From IMG/VR virus record IMGVR_UViG_2740892282_000008: a stretch of DNA of 28,665 bases; one strand, written 5' to 3'. Source of the DNA: a virus. Taxonomy: Duplodnaviria > Heunggongvirae > Uroviricota > Caudoviricetes. The notes beneath the pieces were generated by a model, which made no database searches, was not told the DNA's origin, and saw only the letters and a list, made by a program, of their open reading frames with translations. The translations under genes were made by a program, and so were the position numbers. Of this stretch, positions 8,250-27,134 are shown piece by piece (within the stretch, counting starts at the first letter, position 1; every line of letters starts with the position of its first letter).

Positions 8250-8399
8250 TTCTTGCTCCTCAATCCATTAAAATCTCAGCAATAGTAGTTGTTACGTCCG
8301 CCACTGGCTCAGAGCTGACTATCCGCTAAATTTAGCTCAGTGCCGTAGCTGTGTCAGAACAAACCTAAGCCGAAACCGTTTATTACAAAACAATAAATA

Positions 8400-8828: not shown

Positions 8829-9762
8829 TTTTCCTCACATATGTCATATAGTAAAGGATTATATATACCGTTGTTTTGGACGCTCAAACAGCGAATCAGA
8901 TCAAATAAAACGCACATTTGTTAACATTTACACAAAGTCTGCGTGGGATATTCTGAAAGAATATCCATAATGTGGAGAGAATCTATTGAAGTGCATGGTG
9001 CCGGGTGCCTCCCGGTGAACAAAATGTTCGTGATACCTGTCGGCGACAGAAAAGGTTAATGGTATCACCCCACCGCACAGGGGGATTCACCATGCAGGAG
9101 TTTTCTTAGCAAACTCACTGCGCGCCCGGCAACTCCCAACCACATAAAATGCGGAGTTTGTGGTATTTATGCATATAACTCGCAGGAATTATCTTAAAAA
9201 ACTGATGTCGATCCGGATTAAAAAGAAGCAGGTCATCATCAGATGACTGGAAAAAAGGAAAACAAAAAATACTCATCATACAGTTTTGATTGCAGGGATG
9301 AGCCTGCTATGCACAATATGCAGAATATAAGCAAGATAAAAATATGCAGGCATATTATTTCGGATTTTGTTATTAACACAACCTTTTTAATAATCATTTG
9401 GCATACAATAAACCAGCCCAAAAAGAACCGCCTAAACAGGCGGTTGGTCAATACAAAGGATGCTTCGTCTTTATTATAGTAATCTGAGGCGTCGGGTGTC
9501 TTGTATCAGACAACATATTGTCCCGCTAAACAGCGAATTACAAACCACCCTGCAATGATCTCTCATCTCATTTTATATGAGTTGACGACATCAGGATAAC
9601 GCATCATCAGCCCCTGCCAAGAAATATCAAAACTCCCGCCAGCAATGTGTTATCACAATATTGTAAAAAAAACACAGCACCGAAACTATAACTGGTCTCT
9701 GTTATAATTTGGAGCAGAAAGACCAGTTGCCCAACTAGCAGCATTCTCCCCTGCTTTCCTGA

Positions 9763-10702: not shown

Positions 10703-11301
10703 TACGCAAACTCCAGTAGTTGTGCGGCCACATTTTCAACTTCCTCCTGAGAGGAGAATTTACGGAACAGAATCCAGTTCCACAGCACATTCAGTACAGA
10801 TTTATAAACCTGCTGAAACTCGACTTCGTCCATATTCGCAAAAGCGATGGATTTTGCCCGACGCCCACGGCTACCGTCCGGATAAATATGCTCGGTGTAA
10901 AATCCGGCCTGAATGGTTACCCACTCGCGGAAAGCCTCAAACGACTTTAGCAACGCCGTATCCCGGGTTCTACGAGTCGCAACGGTGTTAAGGTATTGCT
11001 CTACGGCATCACTCAGGGCTGGCGTGTGTTCCCGACCAACTGATTCGCACAGGTAATCAACGAAACCAGACAGCAGTTCTCGTTCGCGAGGCGTGATCGC
11101 CCCACCGACCGGAGTCCAGTAATCGAATCCCAGTTGCAGGAGTTTGAAAAAACGCTTGTGGAATGCGTAGTTACGCACACGCTTAAAGTCTGCGTGTATC
11201 CACTCACCTATTTTGATTTGATGCAGAAAATCGCAACTCTCCGGCGTCGCCGGGAGAAGTAAACCAGAAGAAGTTTGTTTGACCAGTTGTATATGCGCCA
11301 T
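10702..11301 (-). CDS. Nin-region phage protein of unknown function (199 aa)
   Basis: ATG start; first gene of a three-gene translationally coupled unit ending in the Q-position gene. Confidence 0.65.
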   Translation of the reverse strand: MAHIQLVKQTSSGLLLPATPESCDFLHQIKIGEWIHADFKRVRNYAFHKRFFKLLQLGFDYWTPVGGAITPRERELLSGFVDYLCESVGREHTPALSDAVEQYLNTVATRRTRDTALLKSFEAFREWVTIQAGFYTEHIYPDGSRGRRAKSIAFANMDEVEFQQVYKSVLNVLWNWILFRKFSSQEEVENVAAQLLEFA

Positions 11302-11574
11302 TTCTCAATCTCTCGATGGCGCAGTGCAGCAGATGCCAGTTGTTCAGGCTGACGTATAAAGTATAAATAAACTGGTTCCAGTGTAAAGCCCCCACCTTAA
11401 TGGAATAAAAACCAAACAACAGATTGCTGGGATACAAACAACGCTTATTATTAAAAGCGGTTAAACAAATTAAATTTTAATGTTATGCAAATTTGTCAGA
11501 TCACCATAATATCTCATTTGAAAACCGCTGAAATAACAATCCTATCAGGATTAATCATATTAAGGTGAGTAAAT

Positions 11575-11661
11575 ATGGAAAACAACAAATCTGCACATTA
11601 CGCTCCTTTTTTATCTGTAATACTTTTTGTTTTTTGCTGTGTATGGGCATTATTTTTATAA
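11575..11661 (+). CDS. Candidate small hydrophobic peptide (28 aa, MENNKSAHYAPFLSVILFVFCCVWALFL)
   Basis: ATG preceded by AAGGTGAG at good spacing; polar N-terminus then a single transmembrane-like segment; convergent with hok. No homologue recognised. Confidence 0.3.
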   Translation: MENNKSAHYAPFLSVILFVFCCVWALFL

Positions 11662-11769
11662 AAATATTCACAGATAAAATAAACTCGCCGAATCAGGTTA
11701 AGTGTGGGTGCGTTGAGGATGCCTGACACATCAGAGGCGGCGAGGGATTTCTCCCTCGCCTAGTCACTC

Positions 11770-11925
11770 TTACTCCTCAGGTTCGTAAGCTGTGAAGACA
11801 GCGACCTCCGTCTGACCGGTTCGGATTCGCACCTCGCAGAGGTCTTTCCTCGTTACCAGTGCCGTCACTATGACGGTTAAACAGATGACAATCAGTGCGA
11901 CTAACATCGCCTTTTGCTGCTTCAT
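11770..11925 (-). CDS. hok: Hok-family type I toxin (51 aa); in-frame mok-like extension to 11982
   Basis: MKQQKAMLVALIVICLTVIVTALVTRKDLCEVRIRTGQTEVAVFTAYEPEE is near-identical to my recollection of HokD; AAGGAG RBS; upstream in-frame ATG at 11982 gives a 70-aa mok-like ORF; 9-bp hairpin ggcgaggga/tccctcgcc just 3' of the stop. Confidence 0.85.
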   Translation of the reverse strand: MKQQKAMLVALIVICLTVIVTALVTRKDLCEVRIRTGQTEVAVFTAYEPEE

Positions 11926-12136
11926 AGCCTGCTTCTCCTTGCCTTCCGGCGCGTAAGAGGCTAACCTACATGTGCAAAGCATGAAATTGGCCTCAGATTA
12001 ATGTTAAGCGTCTTGCCGGACGCGTAATGTTATCTGGGGCTTTTCTCTATCTGCCTTTGGTGTTCATGCCTGAGGCAGATAGCCTCAAGCACCCGCAGCA
12101 ATTCTACTTAACTCCCGTCACCTCGCCAATATAAAA

Positions 12137-12226
12137 TCAATCAGAAAGGCGATCCATAAGAACAACAGCAAGACAATAAATTGCCATTACAGCCGCAATA
12201 GCTAGCGCACATTTGAGAACCAGCAC
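12137..12226 (-). CDS. Candidate small membrane peptide (29 aa, GTG start)
   Basis: GTG preceded by AGGAGG at 5 nt; encodes VLVLKCALAIAAVMAIYCLAVVLMDRLSD, a single hydrophobic helix. It overlaps the 74-aa six-frame ORF at 12141-12365 in a different frame. Confidence 0.25.
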   Translation of the reverse strand: MLVLKCALAIAAVMAIYCLAVVLMDRLSD

Positions 12227-12405
12227 GACAACCTCCTGTATTGGACGTACACCAGTTCTGATAAATATGAGGCTGTCTCATCATTGATTCAATATAACTA
12301 TTGGGTATAGTTTCTGTGATTTTGTTCTGTAGAAATGGAACACAACAACCAGTCACCACCAGCACTTCTTTAAATACGCCAAGTCCGACGCAAGCTAACC
12401 TTCTA

Positions 12406-12429
12406 GTCCGCTTTGAGCGAGGAGCGGAC
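12406..12429. repeat. Dyad element copy C: GTCCGCT-N10-AGCGGAC
   Basis: Perfect 7-bp inverted arms with 10-bp spacer, ~220 bp upstream of the MFS operon. Confidence 0.6.
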
Positions 12430-12645
12430 CAAACCCGGCCAACTGACTCTTAAAGGGGCCGCAGGAATTTTTCGTCTGAACTTTCGAAGCTCCTCTCCCT
12501 GAAGACAGAAAACTTCTGTGTGCTGTGGGAATATTGAATCTTTGCCTTAGATATAAATAATTTTATCCCGCCTGAAGTTTACATTATTTTATTTATCTGT
12601 TTTTCTAAATCAGACTGCACTCCTTACTTAAATCAGGAGCCAGTC

Positions 12646-13845
12646 ATGCCATTTGTTATTTATGTGTTTACTATCAGTGCCTTTGCGCTCGGACTCGCGG
12701 AATTTGTCCCCATTGGGCTGACAGACGTTATGGCTCAGGGGTTGTGTGTGGGTGTGGAGCAGACCGGGGCAGCGGTTACAACCTATGCACTGGGGGCAAC
12801 GTTCGCGGCACCCGTACTGTCTGCGCTGACAGCAAGCTGGAGCCGGAAAAATGTAATGCTTACAACTGCCGTTGTGTTTACTGCCGGTAGTCTGGCGGCC
12901 GCGTTTGCAGCCACATTACCTCAGCTCCTGTTAGCGCGGTTCATTGCTGGTCTGGGACACGGCCTGTTTCTGGCTGCGGCATCCAGTACCGCAGCTCGTC
13001 TTGCTGGACCGGGTAAAGCAGGCAGAGCGGTGGCTGTGGTATTTGGTGGCTTTACTCTGGCGATGGCAATCGGCGTACCGCTGAGTACATGGTTGGGGGG
13101 GGGGGTCTCATGGCGTCCAGTTCTCGGCGCTATTGCCGCTTTTGGCGCGTTCGGATTCCTTGGACTGTTGTTCGGTATGAAAGATCCCGTACGCAGCGTG
13201 CCCGGTGAACATAGTGACTCAGCAATGCAGAATATCGGCATGCTGTTTAACCGTAAGTTGCTGGCCGGCGCGCTGGTTACGGTGCTGGCGTATGCAGGCT
13301 CGTTTACGGATTACACCTTTATCGCACCTATTCTGACGCAGGTGACAGGGGTTACCGGAGCAACGGTGAGTCTGTTTATGCTGGTTTACGGTATTACAGC
13401 TGCGGTAGGTAATATTCTTGGTGGGAAACTTACCGACAGCATGGGGGTTAATCGTGCCAATATACTCATCATTAGCGGCATTGTTGTTGTCGTGCTTGGT
13501 ATGTGGCTGCTGTCATCCTCACCGGTGAGCATGGGCATTCTGGTTGCGCTGCTGGGTATGGTGACATTTGCCGCAGTGCCGGCACTGCAGGCCCGTCTGA
13601 TTGGTGTCGCTGAGCAACATGCTCCTCATGCGCATGGTGTTGCTGCCGGCCTGAATATTGCGGGCTTCAACTCAGGTATAGCGCTGGGATCAGTACTGGG
13701 CAGCATTACTATAAGCCACGCCGGTATCGTGTATACCGGTATCAGCGGTGCGATTGTTTCTCTGCTCGGCCTGCTGTTGCTGCTTGCACAAATCCGTCGC
13801 AGCCACAGTCGTAAATTTCAACAGGTTAAAATCGTAGGCCAGTAA
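12646..13845 (+). CDS. MFS transporter (399 aa)
   Basis: About 12 predicted transmembrane helices, Gly/Ala-rich major-facilitator-like sequence; AGGAG RBS; GC-rich relative to phage DNA; contains an 11-G tract. Confidence 0.85.
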   Translation: MPFVIYVFTISAFALGLAEFVPIGLTDVMAQGLCVGVEQTGAAVTTYALGATFAAPVLSALTASWSRKNVMLTTAVVFTAGSLAAAFAATLPQLLLARFIAGLGHGLFLAAASSTAARLAGPGKAGRAVAVVFGGFTLAMAIGVPLSTWLGGGVSWRPVLGAIAAFGAFGFLGLLFGMKDPVRSVPGEHSDSAMQNIGMLFNRKLLAGALVTVLAYAGSFTDYTFIAPILTQVTGVTGATVSLFMLVYGITAAVGNILGGKLTDSMGVNRANILIISGIVVVVLGMWLLSSSPVSMGILVALLGMVTFAAVPALQARLIGVAEQHAPHAHGVAAGLNIAGFNSGIALGSVLGSITISHAGIVYTGISGAIVSLLGLLLLLAQIRRSHSRKFQQVKIVGQ

Positions 13846-13856
13846 AGGGAGGTTAT

Positions 13857-14549
13857 ATGCTTACCCGTGAAAATATGCTTAATGGCACATTTGTCAGGGT
13901 GCATGAAGCGCTGCTCCCGGCGAATATGCTCTGGGACGCTGAAAAAATACGCGCATCAATGAACTCTACTCTGGAGGAGCGCCCGACGGGTGCTCCTGTC
14001 TGGATATTTGCCTACGGGTCATTGATGTGGAATCCCGTGCTGGCGATTGAAGAAATGCAACGGGCCCGTCTGAAAGGATGGCAGCGCAGTTTCTGCATTC
14101 GTTTGATATCCGGACGAGCGACTCCTGATGTCCCCGGCAGGATGTTATCGCTCGACGAAGGTGGAATTACCGAAGGTATTGCGTTCAGACTGCCGGAATC
14201 GACTCTTATTAATGAGCTGGAAATTGTCTGGACGCGCGAGATGATAACCGGTCTTTACCGTCCGGTCTGGGCAGACGTTTCGCTAGGAAACGGTGAGGAA
14301 ATTCAGGCGCTGGCTTTCGTATCAGACAGACTGCATCCGCATTATGAACAGGACAATCTTACAGCGACCGTAGCGTTGAGCATCGCATCTGCCCGTGGAG
14401 ACATTGGCACGAATGCAGATTATGTATGGAAACTGCAGGCCACTCTGGGTGCGTTGGGAATACGGGATGATTACGTGAGTGAACTGGCCCTTGCTCTGCA
14501 TGAGGCTCCCTGTAACGATAAACTTCATCAGCGAGGCGCTTCACTATGA
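13857..14549 (+). CDS. ChaC-family gamma-glutamylcyclotransferase-like protein (230 aa)
   Basis: VWIFAYGSLMWNP and GRMLSLDEGG motifs resemble E. coli ChaC; GGGAGG RBS. Confidence 0.75.
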   Translation: MLTRENMLNGTFVRVHEALLPANMLWDAEKIRASMNSTLEERPTGAPVWIFAYGSLMWNPVLAIEEMQRARLKGWQRSFCIRLISGRATPDVPGRMLSLDEGGITEGIAFRLPESTLINELEIVWTREMITGLYRPVWADVSLGNGEEIQALAFVSDRLHPHYEQDNLTATVALSIASARGDIGTNADYVWKLQATLGALGIRDDYVSELALALHEAPCNDKLHQRGASL

Positions 14550-15427
14550 GCCATCTGAGCCATCTGCGAACGTTTCTTGAGGCCTATCGCTCTGGCTCCT
14601 TTTCAAAGGCGGCAGAACTACTGGGCATCACTCAGCCCGCGGCGTCACAGCATATCCAGTCTCTTGAGACTCTGGTTGGTAAGCGTCTGTTTATCAGGCA
14701 GGCCAGAGGCGTGACGGCAACCGAAGCTGCGGATGAGCTTGCCCGCTCAGTTTCACCCTTCATTGATGGTCTGGAAGAAAAGCTGTCCTCTTTCCGGTCA
14801 GGCTCTGTACGCGGGGGAACAATTAATCTGGCAGGACCGCCAGATTTTATTCATTCCCGGCTTGGGACAGTAATGGCTCCACTAATGAAGGAGGGGTATC
14901 GCCTACGCTTTCATACCGGCAATAAGCAACGTATTTATTCCCTTTTGCATGACGGGAGCGCCGATCTCGCTGTTACCGCATCTATGCCTGATGACCGTCT
15001 GTACGGCTATGCACATCTACTGACTGAACGCATGCTCCTTGTTCATGCTCCCGCCATGTCAGAGATCATCGGATCAGAACCTGGTGCTGAAACGCTTGCC
15101 TCATTACCGCTGATTGCTTATGACGAAGAGTTGCCACTGATTAGAGCGCTCTGGGCCTCCATGTTTCAGAGAGCCCCTGAGATGCAGGCTACATTCACCA
15201 TTCCGGATTTACGTATTATCCGCGACTTGGTCTGTGACGGCCACGGGTGGACAGTGCTGCCGGATTATCACTGTGACAATGACCTGAAAAGTGGTCGCCT
15301 GATTTCAGTGACACCTGCAGACCTCGCTCCGACTAATCATCTTTATCTGGTCTGGAACAAAAGGACGGCTAATAACAGCCGAACCGCCTATGTTCGGGAT
15401 TACATTCTTAAAACGTTTCCGCGTTGA
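14546..15427 (+). CDS. LysR-type transcriptional regulator (293 aa)
   Basis: N-terminal LysR HTH (LRTFLEAYRSGSFSKAAELLGITQPAASQHIQSLE) and C-terminal substrate-binding-like domain; ATGA overlap with the ChaC-like gene. Confidence 0.85.
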   Translation: MSHLSHLRTFLEAYRSGSFSKAAELLGITQPAASQHIQSLETLVGKRLFIRQARGVTATEAADELARSVSPFIDGLEEKLSSFRSGSVRGGTINLAGPPDFIHSRLGTVMAPLMKEGYRLRFHTGNKQRIYSLLHDGSADLAVTASMPDDRLYGYAHLLTERMLLVHAPAMSEIIGSEPGAETLASLPLIAYDEELPLIRALWASMFQRAPEMQATFTIPDLRIIRDLVCDGHGWTVLPDYHCDNDLKSGRLISVTPADLAPTNHLYLVWNKRTANNSRTAYVRDYILKTFPR

Positions 15428-15471
15428 TGTTTGAAACGGATGATTGGCGATGCGTATCATAAGTTACGTAT

Positions 15472-15495
15472 GTCCGCTTCTGGCACAAAGCAGAC
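15472..15495. repeat. Dyad element copy A: GTCCGCT-tctggcacaa-AGCAGAC
   Basis: 7-bp arms (one mismatch) with 10-bp spacer, between convergent LysR and membrane-protein genes; 20 of 24 positions identical to copy B. Confidence 0.6.
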
Positions 15496-15557
15496 GCCCA
15501 CTCTCACGCGAATGCTTTGCCCTTGACTTGCCAACAACCGTATCGCTTGCTCCGCAA

Positions 15558-16835
15558 CTATGGTTTTTTATTAGAATCTTCGCCACTAAATAAATTATAA
15601 TAAATTGATTTTATTAGATATCTGTCAGAATCTATATGGTCAGCACGAGTAGCATGCTCTAATGTTTCAAATGCTAGGGTTTGTGCGGCTTCAGCAAAAA
15701 TTCCAGGCCAACCCTTACTCAGCATCGACAGTCCTTTAAGTACCCTTATCTGAATTTCCCTCATACTGGCACCATCGCGCGCAACAGGTGAGAAAAAGTC
15801 TTCAAGTAGATCGTTATTCTGAAGTGGTGCAACATGTACAGAAGGATATTTCACTTCTATTTCATCAGATTTATTCTGCGCGTAAGCGGAAAGTATACGT
15901 ACACCTCTGCCAATGACATCAATGGCGGTTCCAGGATCGTTCACTGCGGGGGAAAGGGCTCGGCAGGCTATTTCGGCCATGACGCTAAGACAAAATCGGG
16001 GGTCCTGAGCAAATGAACGTACATCCGAGACAATAATCGTCTCAAGTAAATCGGTGCTGATTGATGACTCCTGGCCCTGACTCAGGTACAAAACTGGCGT
16101 GGACGGATGTATGAAACTGCCCGGCTGCGCCACGAGGTATACATGACGGGGATCATTGGTCAGCAGCTTGCTGAGTTTCACCATATCAACATATTCAACA
16201 TAGCCAATCTTTTTCGGATAAACTGCAACCGTTCCTTTCGGCTGTTCATTGTTCTCAAGCCATGGATATCCGCCGAGACAGGGATTTCTTGCTCTCGCAA
16301 TAAATGTTTCGATGGCCGCCTGTTCTACTTTTGCCGTTGTCTCACCAACCCTCCCCAGAGAGGTCAAATGCTGTATCCAGCGAAGCAATGTGATGAGGAT
16401 TAAGGCAATGACAACCAGTGTTACAATGAATAAAATGACTCTCCCCCTTTCTCCATAAGCTCCCATATTGAGGGCAATAATCCCTACCAGACTGAAGAGA
16501 AAAGAACCGATGAAGGTGGCCAGTACATTTTGTGTGGTGACGTCTTCAACAACTAAACGAGTAGCTCTGGGAGTCACATTAGTAGTGGCTGAACCGTAGG
16601 CTGTGACCATGATGCTCAGCGAAAATGTGGTCACTGCCAGCATACTCGATGCCAGTATGTTCAGAATGTTATCGACTGCTTCCGCACCAACCTTCACGGA
16701 AACCGACTCAGGTATCATTGATTTAAAAAGAATTGATAAAAGGGCCGTTATTATTGCGACAATTGCGAATAACGTTGCCCTGAACCATAGTTTTTTAAAT
16801 GTCTGCTTCAGCATCCATTTCCAGCGTGAAATCAT
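15558..16835 (-). CDS. Membrane protein of unknown function (about 425 aa; resembles DUF2254-type predicted membrane proteins)
   Basis: Several N-terminal transmembrane helices and a large soluble C-terminal domain; start chosen at the second ATG (16835), which has a GAGGGA RBS; the maximal ORF extends to 16850. Family assignment is from memory and tentative. Confidence 0.55.
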   Translation of the reverse strand: MISRWKWMLKQTFKKLWFRATLFAIVAIITALLSILFKSMIPESVSVKVGAEAVDNILNILASSMLAVTTFSLSIMVTAYGSATTNVTPRATRLVVEDVTTQNVLATFIGSFLFSLVGIIALNMGAYGERGRVILFIVTLVVIALILITLLRWIQHLTSLGRVGETTAKVEQAAIETFIARARNPCLGGYPWLENNEQPKGTVAVYPKKIGYVEYVDMVKLSKLLTNDPRHVYLVAQPGSFIHPSTPVLYLSQGQESSISTDLLETIIVSDVRSFAQDPRFCLSVMAEIACRALSPAVNDPGTAIDVIGRGVRILSAYAQNKSDEIEVKYPSVHVAPLQNNDLLEDFFSPVARDGASMREIQIRVLKGLSMLSKGWPGIFAEAAQTLAFETLEHATRADHIDSDRYLIKSIYYNLFSGEDSNKKP

Positions 16836-16870
16836 TCTGCATTCCCTCATATTGCAGCCGGGATAAATAA

Positions 16871-16891
16871 ATGCCGCCTCTGTGGCGGCAT
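16871..16891 (-). terminator. Hairpin between the BCCT transporter and the membrane-protein gene; possible intrinsic terminator or attenuator
   Basis: 8-bp stem atgccgcc/ggcggcat with loop tctgt; on the minus strand it is followed by ttatttatcc. Confidence 0.4.
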
Positions 16892-16898
16892 GTTGCTG

Positions 16899-18902
16899 TT
16901 AACGAACCAGATGCAGGAAGTGCAGGTGTTTTTCGTACTGGTCCAGTATGTCATTAATCAGCTGTTCCTGATTCCAGCCCATTACATCATAATTTTGGCC
17001 GCCCTCTTTGAGATAGACTTCAGCGCGATAATATCGATGTTGTTCACTCTGCTGCTCATCATTATCCAGCGCAGCGAGCGCGAAGGTCGGTGAGTTATAC
17101 CCGCGAAGCCTCACTTCATATATATAATTCAGCTCGTTGCCCAAATCGACTTCAAGGCGAATACGATCCTCGGCGGCGTCACTGATGTGGCTTATCGTTC
17201 CCTGCTTGTTAAGTTCCTCCTGAACCAGCGTCATGGCGGGTTGGATAATGTCGTCCATAAAACGTTTCACAAGAGAGCGCTTCGGCAAATACGCGATATT
17301 GCGTAACCTTCTCTGCCAGGGAATTGGGTTACGTGCAGCCGTAGGAGCAATAGTCGCCATGCTAAGGCTTTCACGCTTGGTCAAATCCCGACGCAGGGCT
17401 TTTAACAGTCCGTATATGGATATTAATAAGATAACTGAGAAGGGCAATGCACTCGCTATCGTTACGGTTTGCAACGCACTCAGCCCCCCTGCGATCAGCA
17501 GGGCAATAGCAACAACGCCCATGAGCGATGCCCAGAAAATTCGCTGCCAGACGGGCGTGTTTGCCACCCCACCTGATGCCAGAGTATCCACAACCATTGC
17601 CCCCGAATCAGCAGACGTTACAAAGAAGACGATGACCATCGCCATTGCAATGAATGACAGCACGGAAGAGAACGGGAAATGCTCCAGGAAATTAAACAGG
17701 GCAAGCGCAACATCCTGCTGAACGGTATTGGCGAGGTCAGTGGCGCCCTGGTTCATGATGAGATAGATGGCGCTGTTTCCAAACACCGTCATCCACATGA
17801 GCGTAAAGCCGGCGGGAACAAACAACACGCCAGTCACGAACTCACGAATTGTCCTGCCGCGGGAAACGCGTGCAATGAACATACCTACAAACGGCGACCA
17901 TGAAAGCCACCATCCCCAGTATAATAATGTCCAGCCCCCCAGCCAGTTGCTCGACTTGGGTTCATACGCGTAAAGGTTGAACGTTTTACTCACCAGTTCC
18001 GACAGATAACCACCCGTATTTTCCACAAATGACTTCAGCAGAAGCACAGTGGGACCCAGGCACAAGACCAGCGCCAGGAGCAACACCGCCAGGCCCAGAT
18101 TAAGCTCAGACAGGATGCGTATTCCCTTGTCCAGGCCGGACACCACCGAAATCGTCGCTAACCCCGTGATGACCACGATCAAAATGACCTGTACCGTTTC
18201 ATTGATGGGCACGCCGAAAAGATGGTTCAAACCGGCATTCACCTGCAATACACCGTAACCCAGCGATGTTGCAACGCCAAAGACAGTGCCTATCACGGCG
18301 AAGATATCAACCGCGTGGCCTATAGGCCCGTAAATGCGATCGCCGATAATGGGATAGAGCGCAGAACGCAGCGTTAAAGGCAGACCGTGACGGTAACTGA
18401 AAAAGGCCAGAATCAGCGCCACGATGGCATAAATTGCCCATGCGTGCAGACCCCAGTGGAAGAACGTCAGGCGCATGGCTTCCTTCGCTGCCGCAACGGT
18501 CTCTGGAGTGCCGACAGGTGGCGAAAGATAATGCATCACAGGTTCGGCAACGCCAAAGAACATCAGGCCGATCCCCATCCCTGCCGAAAAAAGCATCGCG
18601 AACCAGGAGTGGTAGCTGAAATCAGGCTGCGCATGGTCTGGGCCCAGCTTTATATCACCGTAACGTGAGAGTCCAAGGAACGTGACGCTCAGTAAAATCA
18701 GGGCCACAGCAAGTATGTAGAACCAGCTGGCATTCGTGAAGATTTGTTGCTGAAGTAGTTTAAAATTTTTGTCGGCGACATCCGGGAATACGGCGGCAAA
18801 GGCGACAAGAAGGAAAATTAGCAAAGCAGATGTAAAGAATACCGCTTTGTTAATCTGGCTTGTAGACTTCTTTGGGGTTGTATCATTTTCACTCATAATC
18901 AT
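16899..18902 (-). CDS. BCCT-family transporter, BetT-like (667 aa)
   Basis: Collinear similarity to my recollection of E. coli BetT, including LSELN, WTLLYWGWWLSWSPFVGMFIARVSRGRTIREF and the cytoplasmic C-terminal extension ending DILDQYEKHLHFLHL. Confidence 0.9.
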   Translation of the reverse strand: MIMSENDTTPKKSTSQINKAVFFTSALLIFLLVAFAAVFPDVADKNFKLLQQQIFTNASWFYILAVALILLSVTFLGLSRYGDIKLGPDHAQPDFSYHSWFAMLFSAGMGIGLMFFGVAEPVMHYLSPPVGTPETVAAAKEAMRLTFFHWGLHAWAIYAIVALILAFFSYRHGLPLTLRSALYPIIGDRIYGPIGHAVDIFAVIGTVFGVATSLGYGVLQVNAGLNHLFGVPINETVQVILIVVITGLATISVVSGLDKGIRILSELNLGLAVLLLALVLCLGPTVLLLKSFVENTGGYLSELVSKTFNLYAYEPKSSNWLGGWTLLYWGWWLSWSPFVGMFIARVSRGRTIREFVTGVLFVPAGFTLMWMTVFGNSAIYLIMNQGATDLANTVQQDVALALFNFLEHFPFSSVLSFIAMAMVIVFFVTSADSGAMVVDTLASGGVANTPVWQRIFWASLMGVVAIALLIAGGLSALQTVTIASALPFSVILLISIYGLLKALRRDLTKRESLSMATIAPTAARNPIPWQRRLRNIAYLPKRSLVKRFMDDIIQPAMTLVQEELNKQGTISHISDAAEDRIRLEVDLGNELNYIYEVRLRGYNSPTFALAALDNDEQQSEQHRYYRAEVYLKEGGQNYDVMGWNQEQLINDILDQYEKHLHFLHLVR

Positions 18903-19144
18903 TTATTCCATTAATTAAATCCGCACTGGATAGAAGGTACTACCTCTCACAGAGTAGCAAAGTTCAACTGGCTATGCGGGGTTAATCGGAATGCATGGTG
19001 GAATGAGTGCCGATACAAATCATCCTATATTCTAAGGAGTTTTAAGTTACTCAGCCTGCCAATTACTGGGGCATTTAATTTGTATGATCTGTATCAAAGC
19101 TGGGATATAAGTTAAGTGAAGTATATTAGGCACGAATTACCAGC

Positions 19145-19168
19145 GTCTGCTCTTGGCACAAAGCGGAC
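19145..19168. repeat. Dyad element copy B: GTCTGCT-cttggcacaa-AGCGGAC
   Basis: Same 7-10-7 architecture as copies A and C; ~250 bp upstream of the BCCT start, at the cargo/phage junction. Confidence 0.6.
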
Positions 19169-19236
19169 AACCACGCTAGCTCTACCCTGTGCCACAAAAT
19201 GTCAATTTGCATCTGAACTAATGCACTTTAATCTCG

Positions 19237-19659
19237 TCACTTCAATAAATACCGAACATCCCCCTGATAAAACGACAATATGCGCTGCATAACTTCGCTC
19301 TTCCGGCACTCGCGACAGATTATGTTTAGGCGACTGTCGTAGCGACGTATTTCTCCGTCAGGTAATGACCAGATAAGGTCCGGATCAACCACAACCGGTT
19401 TCTTCAGCTTTGCCCTCGATAATTTTTTGCGGGCATTTTGCCAGTCTTTACGAGCCTGTTCAGACGGGAATAACCCGTAGCCAGAATTGTATACATCGCC
19501 ACTGGCAACCAGCTCTCTGGCCAGAACGCTCATCAGATATCTTGTTGCCCCAGTTTTAGCTTCCAGTTGTCGTAACGTCTCGCGCCCACTCTGGCGTACG
19601 AGTTCAAGAACCTGCCCTTTAATTTTTTCCCGCTCTTCTTGTGTAAAAACTTTTGCCAC
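19237..19659 (-). CDS. Hypothetical phage early protein (140 aa)
   Basis: GTG start with AGGAGGG RBS; last gene of the early-right block before the cargo; no Walker A motif, so not a DnaC-type loader. Confidence 0.6.
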   Translation of the reverse strand: MAKVFTQEEREKIKGQVLELVRQSGRETLRQLEAKTGATRYLMSVLARELVASGDVYNSGYGLFPSEQARKDWQNARKKLSRAKLKKPVVVDPDLIWSLPDGEIRRYDSRLNIICRECRKSEVMQRILSFYQGDVRYLLK

Positions 19660-26737: not shown

Positions 26738-26932
26738 ATGAGATATGACAATGTTAAACCATGTCCATTTTGTGGTTGTCCATCAGTAACGGTGAAAGCC
26801 ATTTCAGGATATTACCGAGCGAAGTGTAACGGATGTGAATCCCGAACCGGTTATGGTGGAAGTGAAAAAGAAGCACTCGAAAGATGGAATAAACGAACCA
26901 CTGGAAATAATAATGGAGGTGTTCATGTATAA
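26738..26932 (+). CDS. ralR: Restriction alleviation protein / type I toxin RalR (Lar, 64 aa)
   Basis: MRYDNVKPCPFCGCPSVTVKAISGYYRAKCNGCESRTGYGGSEKEALERWNKRTTGNNNGGVHV matches my recollection of Rac RalR. Confidence 0.8.
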   Translation: MRYDNVKPCPFCGCPSVTVKAISGYYRAKCNGCESRTGYGGSEKEALERWNKRTTGNNNGGVHV

Positions 26933-27134
26933 AATTACCGCCACTATTGAAAAGGAAGGTGGCACTCCTACTAACTGGACAAGATATTCAAAATCTAAAC
27001 TAACGAAATCAGAATGCGAAAAAATGCTCTCAGGTAAAAAAGAAGCAGGCGTTTCCAGAGAGCAGAAAGTAAAACTGATAAATTTTAATTGCGAGAAACT
27101 TCAGTCCTCGAGAATTGCATTGTATTCAAATTAA
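26925..27134 (+). CDS. ydaC: YdaC (69 aa)
   Basis: ATG with GGAGGTG RBS, overlapping the ralR stop by 8 nt; MYKITATIEKEGGTPTNWTRYSKSKLTKSECEKMLSGKK... Confidence 0.75.
   Translation: MYKITATIEKEGGTPTNWTRYSKSKLTKSECEKMLSGKKEAGVSREQKVKLINFNCEKLQSSRIALYSN

Follow-up and report, generated by a model that had tools for sequence, protein, structure and literature searches.

Dyad elements at cargo junctions of Rac-like and P2-like phages as probable joints of cassette exchange

The Z/fun hotspot of phage P2, situated between genes G and FI, carries inverted repeats that, as stated in a review passage citing Nilsson et al. (2004; Mol Biol Evol 21:1), enable site-specific recombination. These repeats are not discussed by Rousset et al. 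(2022), and the mechanism of exchange is still listed as unknown in a 2026 study of P2/P4 hotspots (PMC13586616). Here, we analyze a 28,665-nt stretch of DNA from a virus assigned to the Caudoviricetes (IMG/VR record IMGVR_UViG_2740892282_000008; the whole stretch is referred to as the window), which represents a Rac-like Escherichia coli prophage and contains an island of cargo genes punctuated by three copies of a 24-bp dyad, GTCYGCT-N10-AGCRGAC. A search of phage records located the same element in P2-like phages, and in the Z-region of P2-EC67, it falls within the repeats annotated as 'left' and 'right inverted repeat' (GenBank AJ512685, linked to Nilsson et al., 2004). We conclude with high confidence that the dyads are the recombination joints of a cassette-exchange system. 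It is, in addition, fairly probable that the three copies in the window act as core-type sites for site-specific recombination, in a system by which cargo modules enter and leave hotspots in temperate phages.

Layout and distribution of the dyads

An exact-match scan of the window identified precisely three copies of the dyad, at positions 12406-12429 (site A), 15472-15495 (site B) and 19145-19168 (site C), in agreement with the initial annotation of this sequence. A chance origin was rejected, since none of 100 dinucleotide-preserving shuffles contained any match. As also noted in that annotation, the dyads mark the boundaries of the cargo and the junction between its two modules: site A is located 217 nt upstream of the MFS transporter gene, site B between the convergent ends of the LysR and DUF2254 genes, and site C between the start of the BCCT transporter gene and the stop codon of the DUF977 gene. 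For further comparison, all copies were oriented such that an arm at nucleotides 1-9 is followed by a core at nucleotides 10-15 and a second arm at nucleotides 16-24, and their flanks were then clustered. In this orientation, the first arm is variable, the 6-bp core reads either TGGCAC or TCGCTC, and the second arm is conserved. Sites B and C are both of the TGGCAC-core type and lie on the plus strand. Site B comprises the variable arm GTCCGCTTC (15472-15480), the core (15481-15486) and the conserved arm AAAGCAGAC (15487-15495), while site C is made up of the variable arm GTCTGCTCT (19145-19153), the core (19154-19159) and the conserved arm AAAGCGGAC (19160-19168), which is directed toward DUF977. 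Site A is of the TCGCTC-core type and lies on the minus strand, inverted with respect to B and C. Read on the plus strand, it starts with the conserved arm GTCCGCTTT (12406-12414), which faces the hokD/sok-nin backbone on the left, followed by GAGCGA, the reverse complement of TCGCTC (12415-12420), and the variable arm GGAGCGGAC (12421-12429). Its reverse complement, GTCCGCTCC TCGCTC AAAGCGGAC, matches site C at 20 of 24 positions. The initial annotation held that sites A and B have most of their spacer in common, but it is B and C that share a spacer, TGGCACAA, and that of the inverted site A, with its other core type, differs.

In a scan of viral contigs, sites of the B/C type were detected in at least 120 IMG/VR contigs, and 1.2 Mb of these loci contained 258 copies with up to two stem mismatches, falling into the two core classes TGGCAC and TCGCTC. 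Within complete E. coli genomes, a consensus 30-mer occurred at a median of one place per genome (maximum six), on prophages and plasmids. These numbers led us to reject a genome-wide repetitive extragenic palindrome (REP) of E. coli, and they speak against a motif that is dense throughout the genome, a possibility that had been raised as a potential objection to a link with the cargo. Similarly, the island is not chromosomal DNA caught between two prophage remnants, because it resides within one contiguous Rac-like prophage. In the Qin prophage of E. coli K-12 MG1655, flxA is flanked by two sites, one per core type (L246, 4013-4036 and 5004-5027), adjoining relBE-hokD, and this pair represents a convenient laboratory test bed. 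The annotated open reading frame (ORF) ydfV overlaps one of the two Qin sites and may be spurious.

This distribution also bears on the earlier suggestion that the LysR regulator of the island uses the dyads as its operators. Although dyad symmetry and the location of two of the three copies at the flanks of the LysR-containing operon would be compatible with such a role, almost all other copies flank cargo without a LysR gene, with hundreds of them bounding unrelated modules in Rac-like, P2-like and other contexts and one located in K-12 Qin beside flxA and relBE. Based on the distribution of the element, we thus reject the operator reading, whose likelihood we regard as negligible.

The arrangement of neighboring sites follows a simple grammar. 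Inverted neighbors differ in their core in 205 of 208 pairs, with 152 of these heterotypic pairs enclosing cargo (median 1.6 kb) and the other 53 forming back-to-back doublets about 18 nt apart. Direct neighbors, by contrast, have the same core in all 27 pairs. A requirement for spacer identity between partner sites would fit this pattern of pairs (27/27 direct with the same core, 205/208 inverted with different cores). The window obeys the same rules: module 1 lies between the inverted sites A and B, with the cores TCGCTC and TGGCAC, respectively, and module 2 between the direct sites B and C, which share the core TGGCAC. Elsewhere, arrays of five to seven sites are interspersed with small cargo genes (L016, 979-3958; L072, 4169-8481) that encode, for instance, a TIR-like nucleotide-binding protein or a GNAT acetyltransferase, and the regions look like integron-style cassette arrays.

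The dyads might conceivably act at the transcript level, as terminators, insulators or mRNA-stabilizing hairpins that shield phage genes from cargo transcription. They can indeed form hairpins of 7-9 bp with folding energies of -10 to -17 kcal/mol, and sites B and C are situated 3' of minus-strand genes. However, no T-tract follows A, B or C, a terminator scan does not call the dyads, their folding z-scores are unremarkable (0 to -1.8), and no Rfam match was obtained for them at either gathering or permissive thresholds. Moreover, stem changes in the enteric set are one-sided rather than compensatory, and the cargo genes occur in either orientation, whereas the orientation of the sites follows the backbone. 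A role as transcript signals thus appears highly improbable.

Breakpoints within the site

After the addition of P2-like loci, the set used to map breakpoints comprised 450 elements from 215 viral loci. Flanks on either side of the element were found to be joined to many different partners. The flank on the left of site A (cluster TAGAAGGTTAGCTTGCG, hok side) is attached to 16-18 different cargo flanks, and that of site C (cluster AACCACGC(T/C)AG..., DUF977 side), represented by ~79 copies, to 16 different left partners. The flank of site B (cluster GCCCACTCTCAC), which corresponds to the 3' end of DUF2254, has seven different left partners, all with AGCAGAC, the arm variant of site B that goes along with this flank. 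In three loci, the variable arm of site C, together with its flank, is joined to a P2 backbone with the arm AGAGCGGAC. When pairs of copies with the same right but different left flanks were compared (898 pairs), the differences lay at positions 1-9 and almost never at positions 10-24; in the 42 pairs whose left flanks were the same and whose right flanks differed, they were mainly located at positions 16, 17 and 21. The switch is thus confined to about positions 10-15. Throughout the 215 viral loci, variable arms go with the flank of the cargo and conserved arms with that of the backbone, which places the exchange point within the core. As positions 1-9 and 16-24 segregate in this manner, each junction can be described as a chimera of a cargo arm, a shared 6-bp core and a backbone arm. 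This organization, with inverted arms in a 9-6-9 layout and arm variants that segregate with their own flanks across positions 10-15, fits that of a tyrosine-recombinase core site.

The cargo between A-like and C-like sites varies widely and is found in either orientation; in 46 Rac-like loci, the same flanks enclose different cargo of 1.0-6.8 kb. Of eight alternative cargo proteins, three matched candidate defense families. Exchange also extends across phage families. The P2-like phage L120 is 97% identical to P2 over FI and downstream and has a G-like gene on the other side. Between G and FI, and thus in the Z/fun hotspot, it carries the window segment 15470-19192 at 99.5% identity, followed by 1 kb of cargo that is otherwise found in Rac-like phages. 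Several other cargo ends are common to Rac and P2 backbones, each of them joined to the conserved arm of the respective backbone (AAAGCGGAC in Rac, AGAGCGGAC in P2). One of the possibilities considered initially, that the dyads are scars of recombination or insertion left by stepwise acquisition, is supported by these data, since the element bounds at least 16-30 different cargo sets in Rac-like and P2-like phages and contains the homology breakpoints, and since the DUF2254-BCCT module recurs, bounded by the same sites and 99.5% identical, in a P2-like phage. The term 'small repeat family', offered as another possibility, is equally apt, because the same element bounds many different cargo sets in both phage groups. 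A transposon that carries the cargo between 24-bp terminal repeats was rejected, as the conserved-arm variants stay with the backbone.

The DUF2254-BCCT cassette is present in ~409 E. coli records at an identity of at least 99% and in roughly 1,000 to 1,500 more at ~94%. One ~94% identical pair is located on the chromosome of strain E24377A, in an island rich in insertion sequences beside lpxM/virK/capU; on the 3' side of this pair, a degenerate site (L245, 4977-5000) corresponds in position to site B. Pairs of this E24377A type, with ~94% identity, occur in well over 1,000 E. coli genomes.

The independent assortment of flanks has to be weighed against the idea that the dyads are selfish palindromes, similar to REPs or miniature inverted-repeat transposable elements (MITEs), that were inserted or retained at existing module boundaries and play no role in module movement. 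A perfect-arm version of the palindrome, GTCCGCTTT-N6-AAAGCGGAC, is common in Alphaproteobacteria and extends to certain members of the Gamma- and Betaproteobacteria; it frequently occurs as tandem copies next to ordinary genes, and the alphaproteobacterial chromosomes contain multiple copies of it, as expected for elements of this kind. In the form ATGTCCGCTTT-TGACCC/TGGCCC/TGGCAC-AAAGCGGACAT, the palindrome is multi-copy in a set of contigs that stem mostly from Alphaproteobacteria (L123-L242). The palindromes in these contigs often form direct tandem pairs 21 nt apart and are read through by spurious ORFs (MSAL..KRT, ..KADI). In E. coli, however, the element has a median of one copy per genome and is always located in mobile DNA. 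In addition, its left and right flanks assort independently and its arms follow their own flanks, a pattern that simple intergenic insertion would not yield, and no 'empty' continuous flank pairs were seen. Together, these findings render a role as passive repeats distinctly improbable. A literature search with sequence strings of the element returned no match, and a report on CGTC-tagged REPs, which describes loops of 4-5 nt, gives no sequences in its text by which a relationship to the dyads could be checked (PMC3733652).

Apart from sites A, B and C, the window contains a degenerate fourth copy of the dyad at positions 8296-8319 (plus strand), which reads GTCCGCCAC TGGCTC AGAGCTGAC and has two mismatches. 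It lies just upstream of a moron gene whose product resembles the C-terminal region of TolA. Five viral loci show this copy in an identical context, with a single left partner and no sign of exchange.

A candidate recombinase and the proposed exchange

Some cargo regions encode a protein of ~200 amino acids that belongs to the phage integrase family (PF00589, E = 7e-18) and consists of the catalytic domain only. It scores well below the cutoffs of more specific models, including those for integron integrases (20.7 bits versus 265), the invertase family (26.7 versus 222) and XerC/XerD (49 and 31 bits, with cutoffs of about 330). Homologs with 78-97% identity are very numerous across several gammaproteobacterial genera, and 887 of 5,426 E. 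coli genomes (~16%) carry the gene. K-12 appears to lack it, as the sole match was to a 73-nt fragment in one K-12 record. In 12-16 phage-borne copies from enteric bacteria, the upstream region is composed of a variable flank, a variable arm, TCGCTC, ATAAGGGAC and a conserved leader, and the stop codon is directly followed by a hairpin ending in CAGCCCT, GTGCCA, a variable arm and a variable flank. The enteric recombinase gene is thus bracketed by one site of each core type, and the outer flanks of these sites include many different ones. Two GC-rich lineages of the recombinase (53-74% identical) have a complete palindrome at a distance of 3-52 nt from either end of the gene; the palindromes are inverted and have cores of their own. 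This small tyrosine recombinase is therefore the likely candidate for the enzyme acting at the dyads. We infer that it catalyzes the exchange and that the process is conservative and site-specific, and we have moderate confidence in an exchange of this kind being catalyzed in trans by the small recombinase.

Many IMG/VR contigs (L441-L456) contain only fragments of the recombinase, covering residues 162-200, 170-200 or 1-21, which suggests frequent decay of the gene or truncation at the sites. A further motif, CCCTGTGCCA, is located 16-25 nt past the conserved arm of site C (window 19169-19200). It recurs in the left inverted repeat of P2 (CTCTGTGCC; L243, 1410-1445) and directly after the recombinase stop codon (CAGCCCTGTGCCA; L378, 6555-6590) and may be the relic of a second site or the leftover of a deleted recombinase module.

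According to the mechanism we propose, strand exchange would take place within the 6-bp core, so that the variable arm stays with the cargo and the conserved arm with the backbone. The Rac-like hotspot extends between DUF977 and the hokD/nin region and is bracketed by the inverted sites A (TCGCTC) and C (TGGCAC). Because of their different cores, these two sites would not be able to recombine with each other, but each could react with a same-core site on another molecule, thereby allowing cassette exchange. Site B would have been brought in by the DUF2254-BCCT cassette, as a shared core and direct orientation of B and C are expected once a circle with one site integrates at C. The recombinase itself would act in trans, from outside the window.

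Another possibility is that the dyad is a conserved hairpin kept for another reason and that modules are swapped by short-homology recombination, through RecET, Red or RecA-independent annealing, with no need for a dedicated recombinase. The dyad would then simply be the sole 15-24 bp of identity common to otherwise unrelated phages, a stretch long enough for phage annealing systems. Rac encodes RecET, the window lacks a recombinase, no excision product was detected in the E. coli genomes or IMG/VR, and the mechanism is considered open in the 2026 study on hotspots of P2/P4 (PMC13586616), all of which would suit this scenario. However, the switch does not leave the 6-bp core even for arms that differ at positions 9 and 16-17, and the rule that inverted neighbors are heterotypic and direct neighbors homotypic is not predicted from homologies that differ at just 2 of 24 positions. 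Moreover, in many lineages, a tyrosine recombinase gene is embedded between sites of both types. We therefore consider short-homology recombination unlikely, albeit the most serious competitor of a site-specific reaction.

Several observations weigh against the involvement of a dedicated recombination system. The predicted product of a deletion between B and C was not found in the 5,426 E. coli genomes, nor was the predicted circle junction, AATTACCAGC GTCTGCTCT TGGCAC AAAGCAGAC GCCCACTC, found in IMG/VR. No recombinase gene is present in the window or in most site-carrying phages, so that action in trans must be assumed. Three of the sampled recombinase lineages (L380, L386 and L390) lack a recognizable flanking site, and conversely, 119 of 120 sampled palindrome loci, mostly from Alphaproteobacteria, have no linked recombinase within 8 kb. 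Between E. coli phages and Alphaproteobacteria, the conserved arm hardly varies, and this near-invariance, together with the multi-copy nature of the element in Alphaproteobacteria, could point to another primary function. Finally, the narrow crossover interval depends on few informative arm variants, and many of the loci are related, such that the counts of pairs and junctions represent non-independent events.

Going one step further, we tentatively suggest that the uncharacterized family of ~200-residue recombinases and the 24-bp two-core sites constitute an integron-like, trans-acting cassette-exchange system that shuffles defense genes and other cargo among unrelated temperate phages (P2-like and Rac/Qin-like lambdoid), plasmids and islands, with related pairs in Alphaproteobacteria having expanded their sites into REP-like repeats. 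If true, this would provide a mechanism for the rapid swapping of genes at phage defense hotspots, which is unexplained according to the 2026 survey. Phage hotspots are a main reservoir of anti-phage defense genes. The dyads connect the hotspot of a lambdoid prophage with the Z/fun hotspot of P2 through one short site with a defined exchange point and direct attention to a specific candidate enzyme. Moreover, the sites can be used as handles in the search for prophage cargo, including new defense systems.

The cargo island and its relation to described systems

The right end of the Rac-like prophage in the window carries intR/ttcA, followed by recET, kilR, sieB, ydaS/T-like genes, an O-like gene and DUF977 (19237-19659, minus strand), a gene of the replication module. 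On the other side of the island, hokD/sok, DUF1367, YbcO and the Q-like DUF1133 precede the lysis genes and trkG. Module 1 (12430-15471, plus strand) is flanked on either side by variable arms and encodes the MFS transporter (12646-13845; Pfam MFS_1), a ChaC-like gamma-glutamylcyclotransferase (13857-14549; Pfam ChaC) and the LysR regulator (14546-15427; RefSeq annotation). Module 2 (15496-19144, minus strand), the cassette between the direct same-core sites B and C, contains the genes for the DUF2254 membrane protein (15558-16850; Pfam DUF2254) and the BCCT transporter (16899-18902; Pfam BCCT). These Pfam and RefSeq assignments bear out the gene identities given in the initial annotation, and the GC richness of module 1, previously judged by eye, is reflected in a computed GC content of 0.52-0.54 for the MFS-ChaC-LysR block versus ~0.44 in the flanks. 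The full island is found in 296 and module 1 in 297 of the 5,426 complete E. coli genomes.

The stretch that separates site A from the nin-like genes holds hokD, its antisense RNA sok (Rfam RF01794) and a small hydrophobic minus-strand ORF (11770-12094 and 12130-12240). Site A is thus not the outer edge of all accessory DNA, so that the proposed delimitation of the island by dyads holds with respect to the location of the three sites but not for the non-phage stretch as a whole, which begins left of A. In strain ECCWS199, ~531 bp of extra sequence are found between DUF1367 and site A (L001, 11471-13001, compared with window 11301-12300). This stretch is annotated as encoding a DUF1971 protein and has no annotated hokD, and it represents another variable stretch adjoining the hotspot. 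Rfam matches elsewhere in the window correspond to ordinary Rac/lambdoid features, namely IS009 (510-708), STnc100 (8939-9125) and the RalA antitoxin RNA (26931-27109).

Among the described systems, integrons share several features with this locus. Promoter-poor cargo units each carry one site, the direct same-core pair B/C resembles an integrated cassette, a tyrosine recombinase gene adjoins its own sites, and arrays of small cassettes exist (L016). However, the site is only 24 bp long and lacks both the R''/L''...L'/R' structure of attC and its GTTRRRY / RYYYAAC core sites. Moreover, the island contains no IntI-type integrase, the candidate recombinase consists of a catalytic domain only, and the hotspot is bracketed by two inverted heterospecific sites, whereas an integron array runs in one direction. 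The exchange we propose would closely resemble recombinase-mediated cassette exchange as engineered with heterospecific lox sites.

Another parallel is provided by the pdif modules of Acinetobacter plasmids, whose XerC/XerD sites have an 11-6-11 arrangement of arm, spacer and arm, with one arm conserved and the other loose. These sites alternate in orientation, and each module is flanked by two like arms. Together with their flanking AT, the dyads likewise adopt an 11-6-11 layout, and the modules are flanked by two like arms. Unlike pdif modules, however, the dyads are hosted by phages and not by plasmids, their putative enzyme is distinct from XerC/XerD, and the arms GTCCGCTTT and AAAGCGGAC show no resemblance to the dif/XerCD consensus on inspection of the sequences. 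REP/BIME-RAYT systems also involve short, sometimes paired palindromes and an enzyme gene bracketed by its own repeats, in keeping with the multi-copy state of the element in Alphaproteobacteria. They differ from the dyads in that the enzyme considered here is a PF00589 tyrosine recombinase instead of an HUH Y1 transposase, that there is no GTAG tag and that the median copy number in E. coli is one. The site-specific recombinases FimB and FimE have a size of ~200 amino acids, and the sfx sites of R64 are asymmetric, with one conserved and one loose arm. The candidate recombinase and its sites resemble FimB/FimE and Rci in these respects, but the protein is not a member of the invertase family, and the outcome is the exchange or insertion of modules rather than inversion. 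Resemblances to P22 boxB, the sigma-54 -24 box, the R64 sfx spacer GTGCCAA and the gyrase and RuvC consensus sequences were considered but dropped as unsupported.

The closest counterpart is the P2 Z-region, whose repeats belong to the same sequence family as the dyads. The left inverted repeat of P2-EC67 begins with TTCCACTTC TGGCAC AGAGCGGAC, and the right one ends in a degenerate site of the TCGCTC type, so that the element is located at the inner edge of both annotated repeats. Sites B and C differ from the site in the left repeat at few positions. Both loci feature the same inverted heterotypic pair around variable cargo, and in both, the same cargo, such as the BCCT cassette and the 1-kb cargo shared by Rac-like and P2-like phages, appears in different contexts with junctions at the repeats. 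In contrast to the P2 Z-region, the pair in the window belongs to a lambdoid prophage of the Rac-like type, where it sits between replication and nin modules instead of tail genes and is accompanied by an additional internal site (B). For the P2 repeats, the sources consulted name neither a recombinase nor a crossover at the level of the core. The dyads are thus copies of a short recombination site that has already been noted around P2 Z/fun and is of a known, but poorly understood kind.

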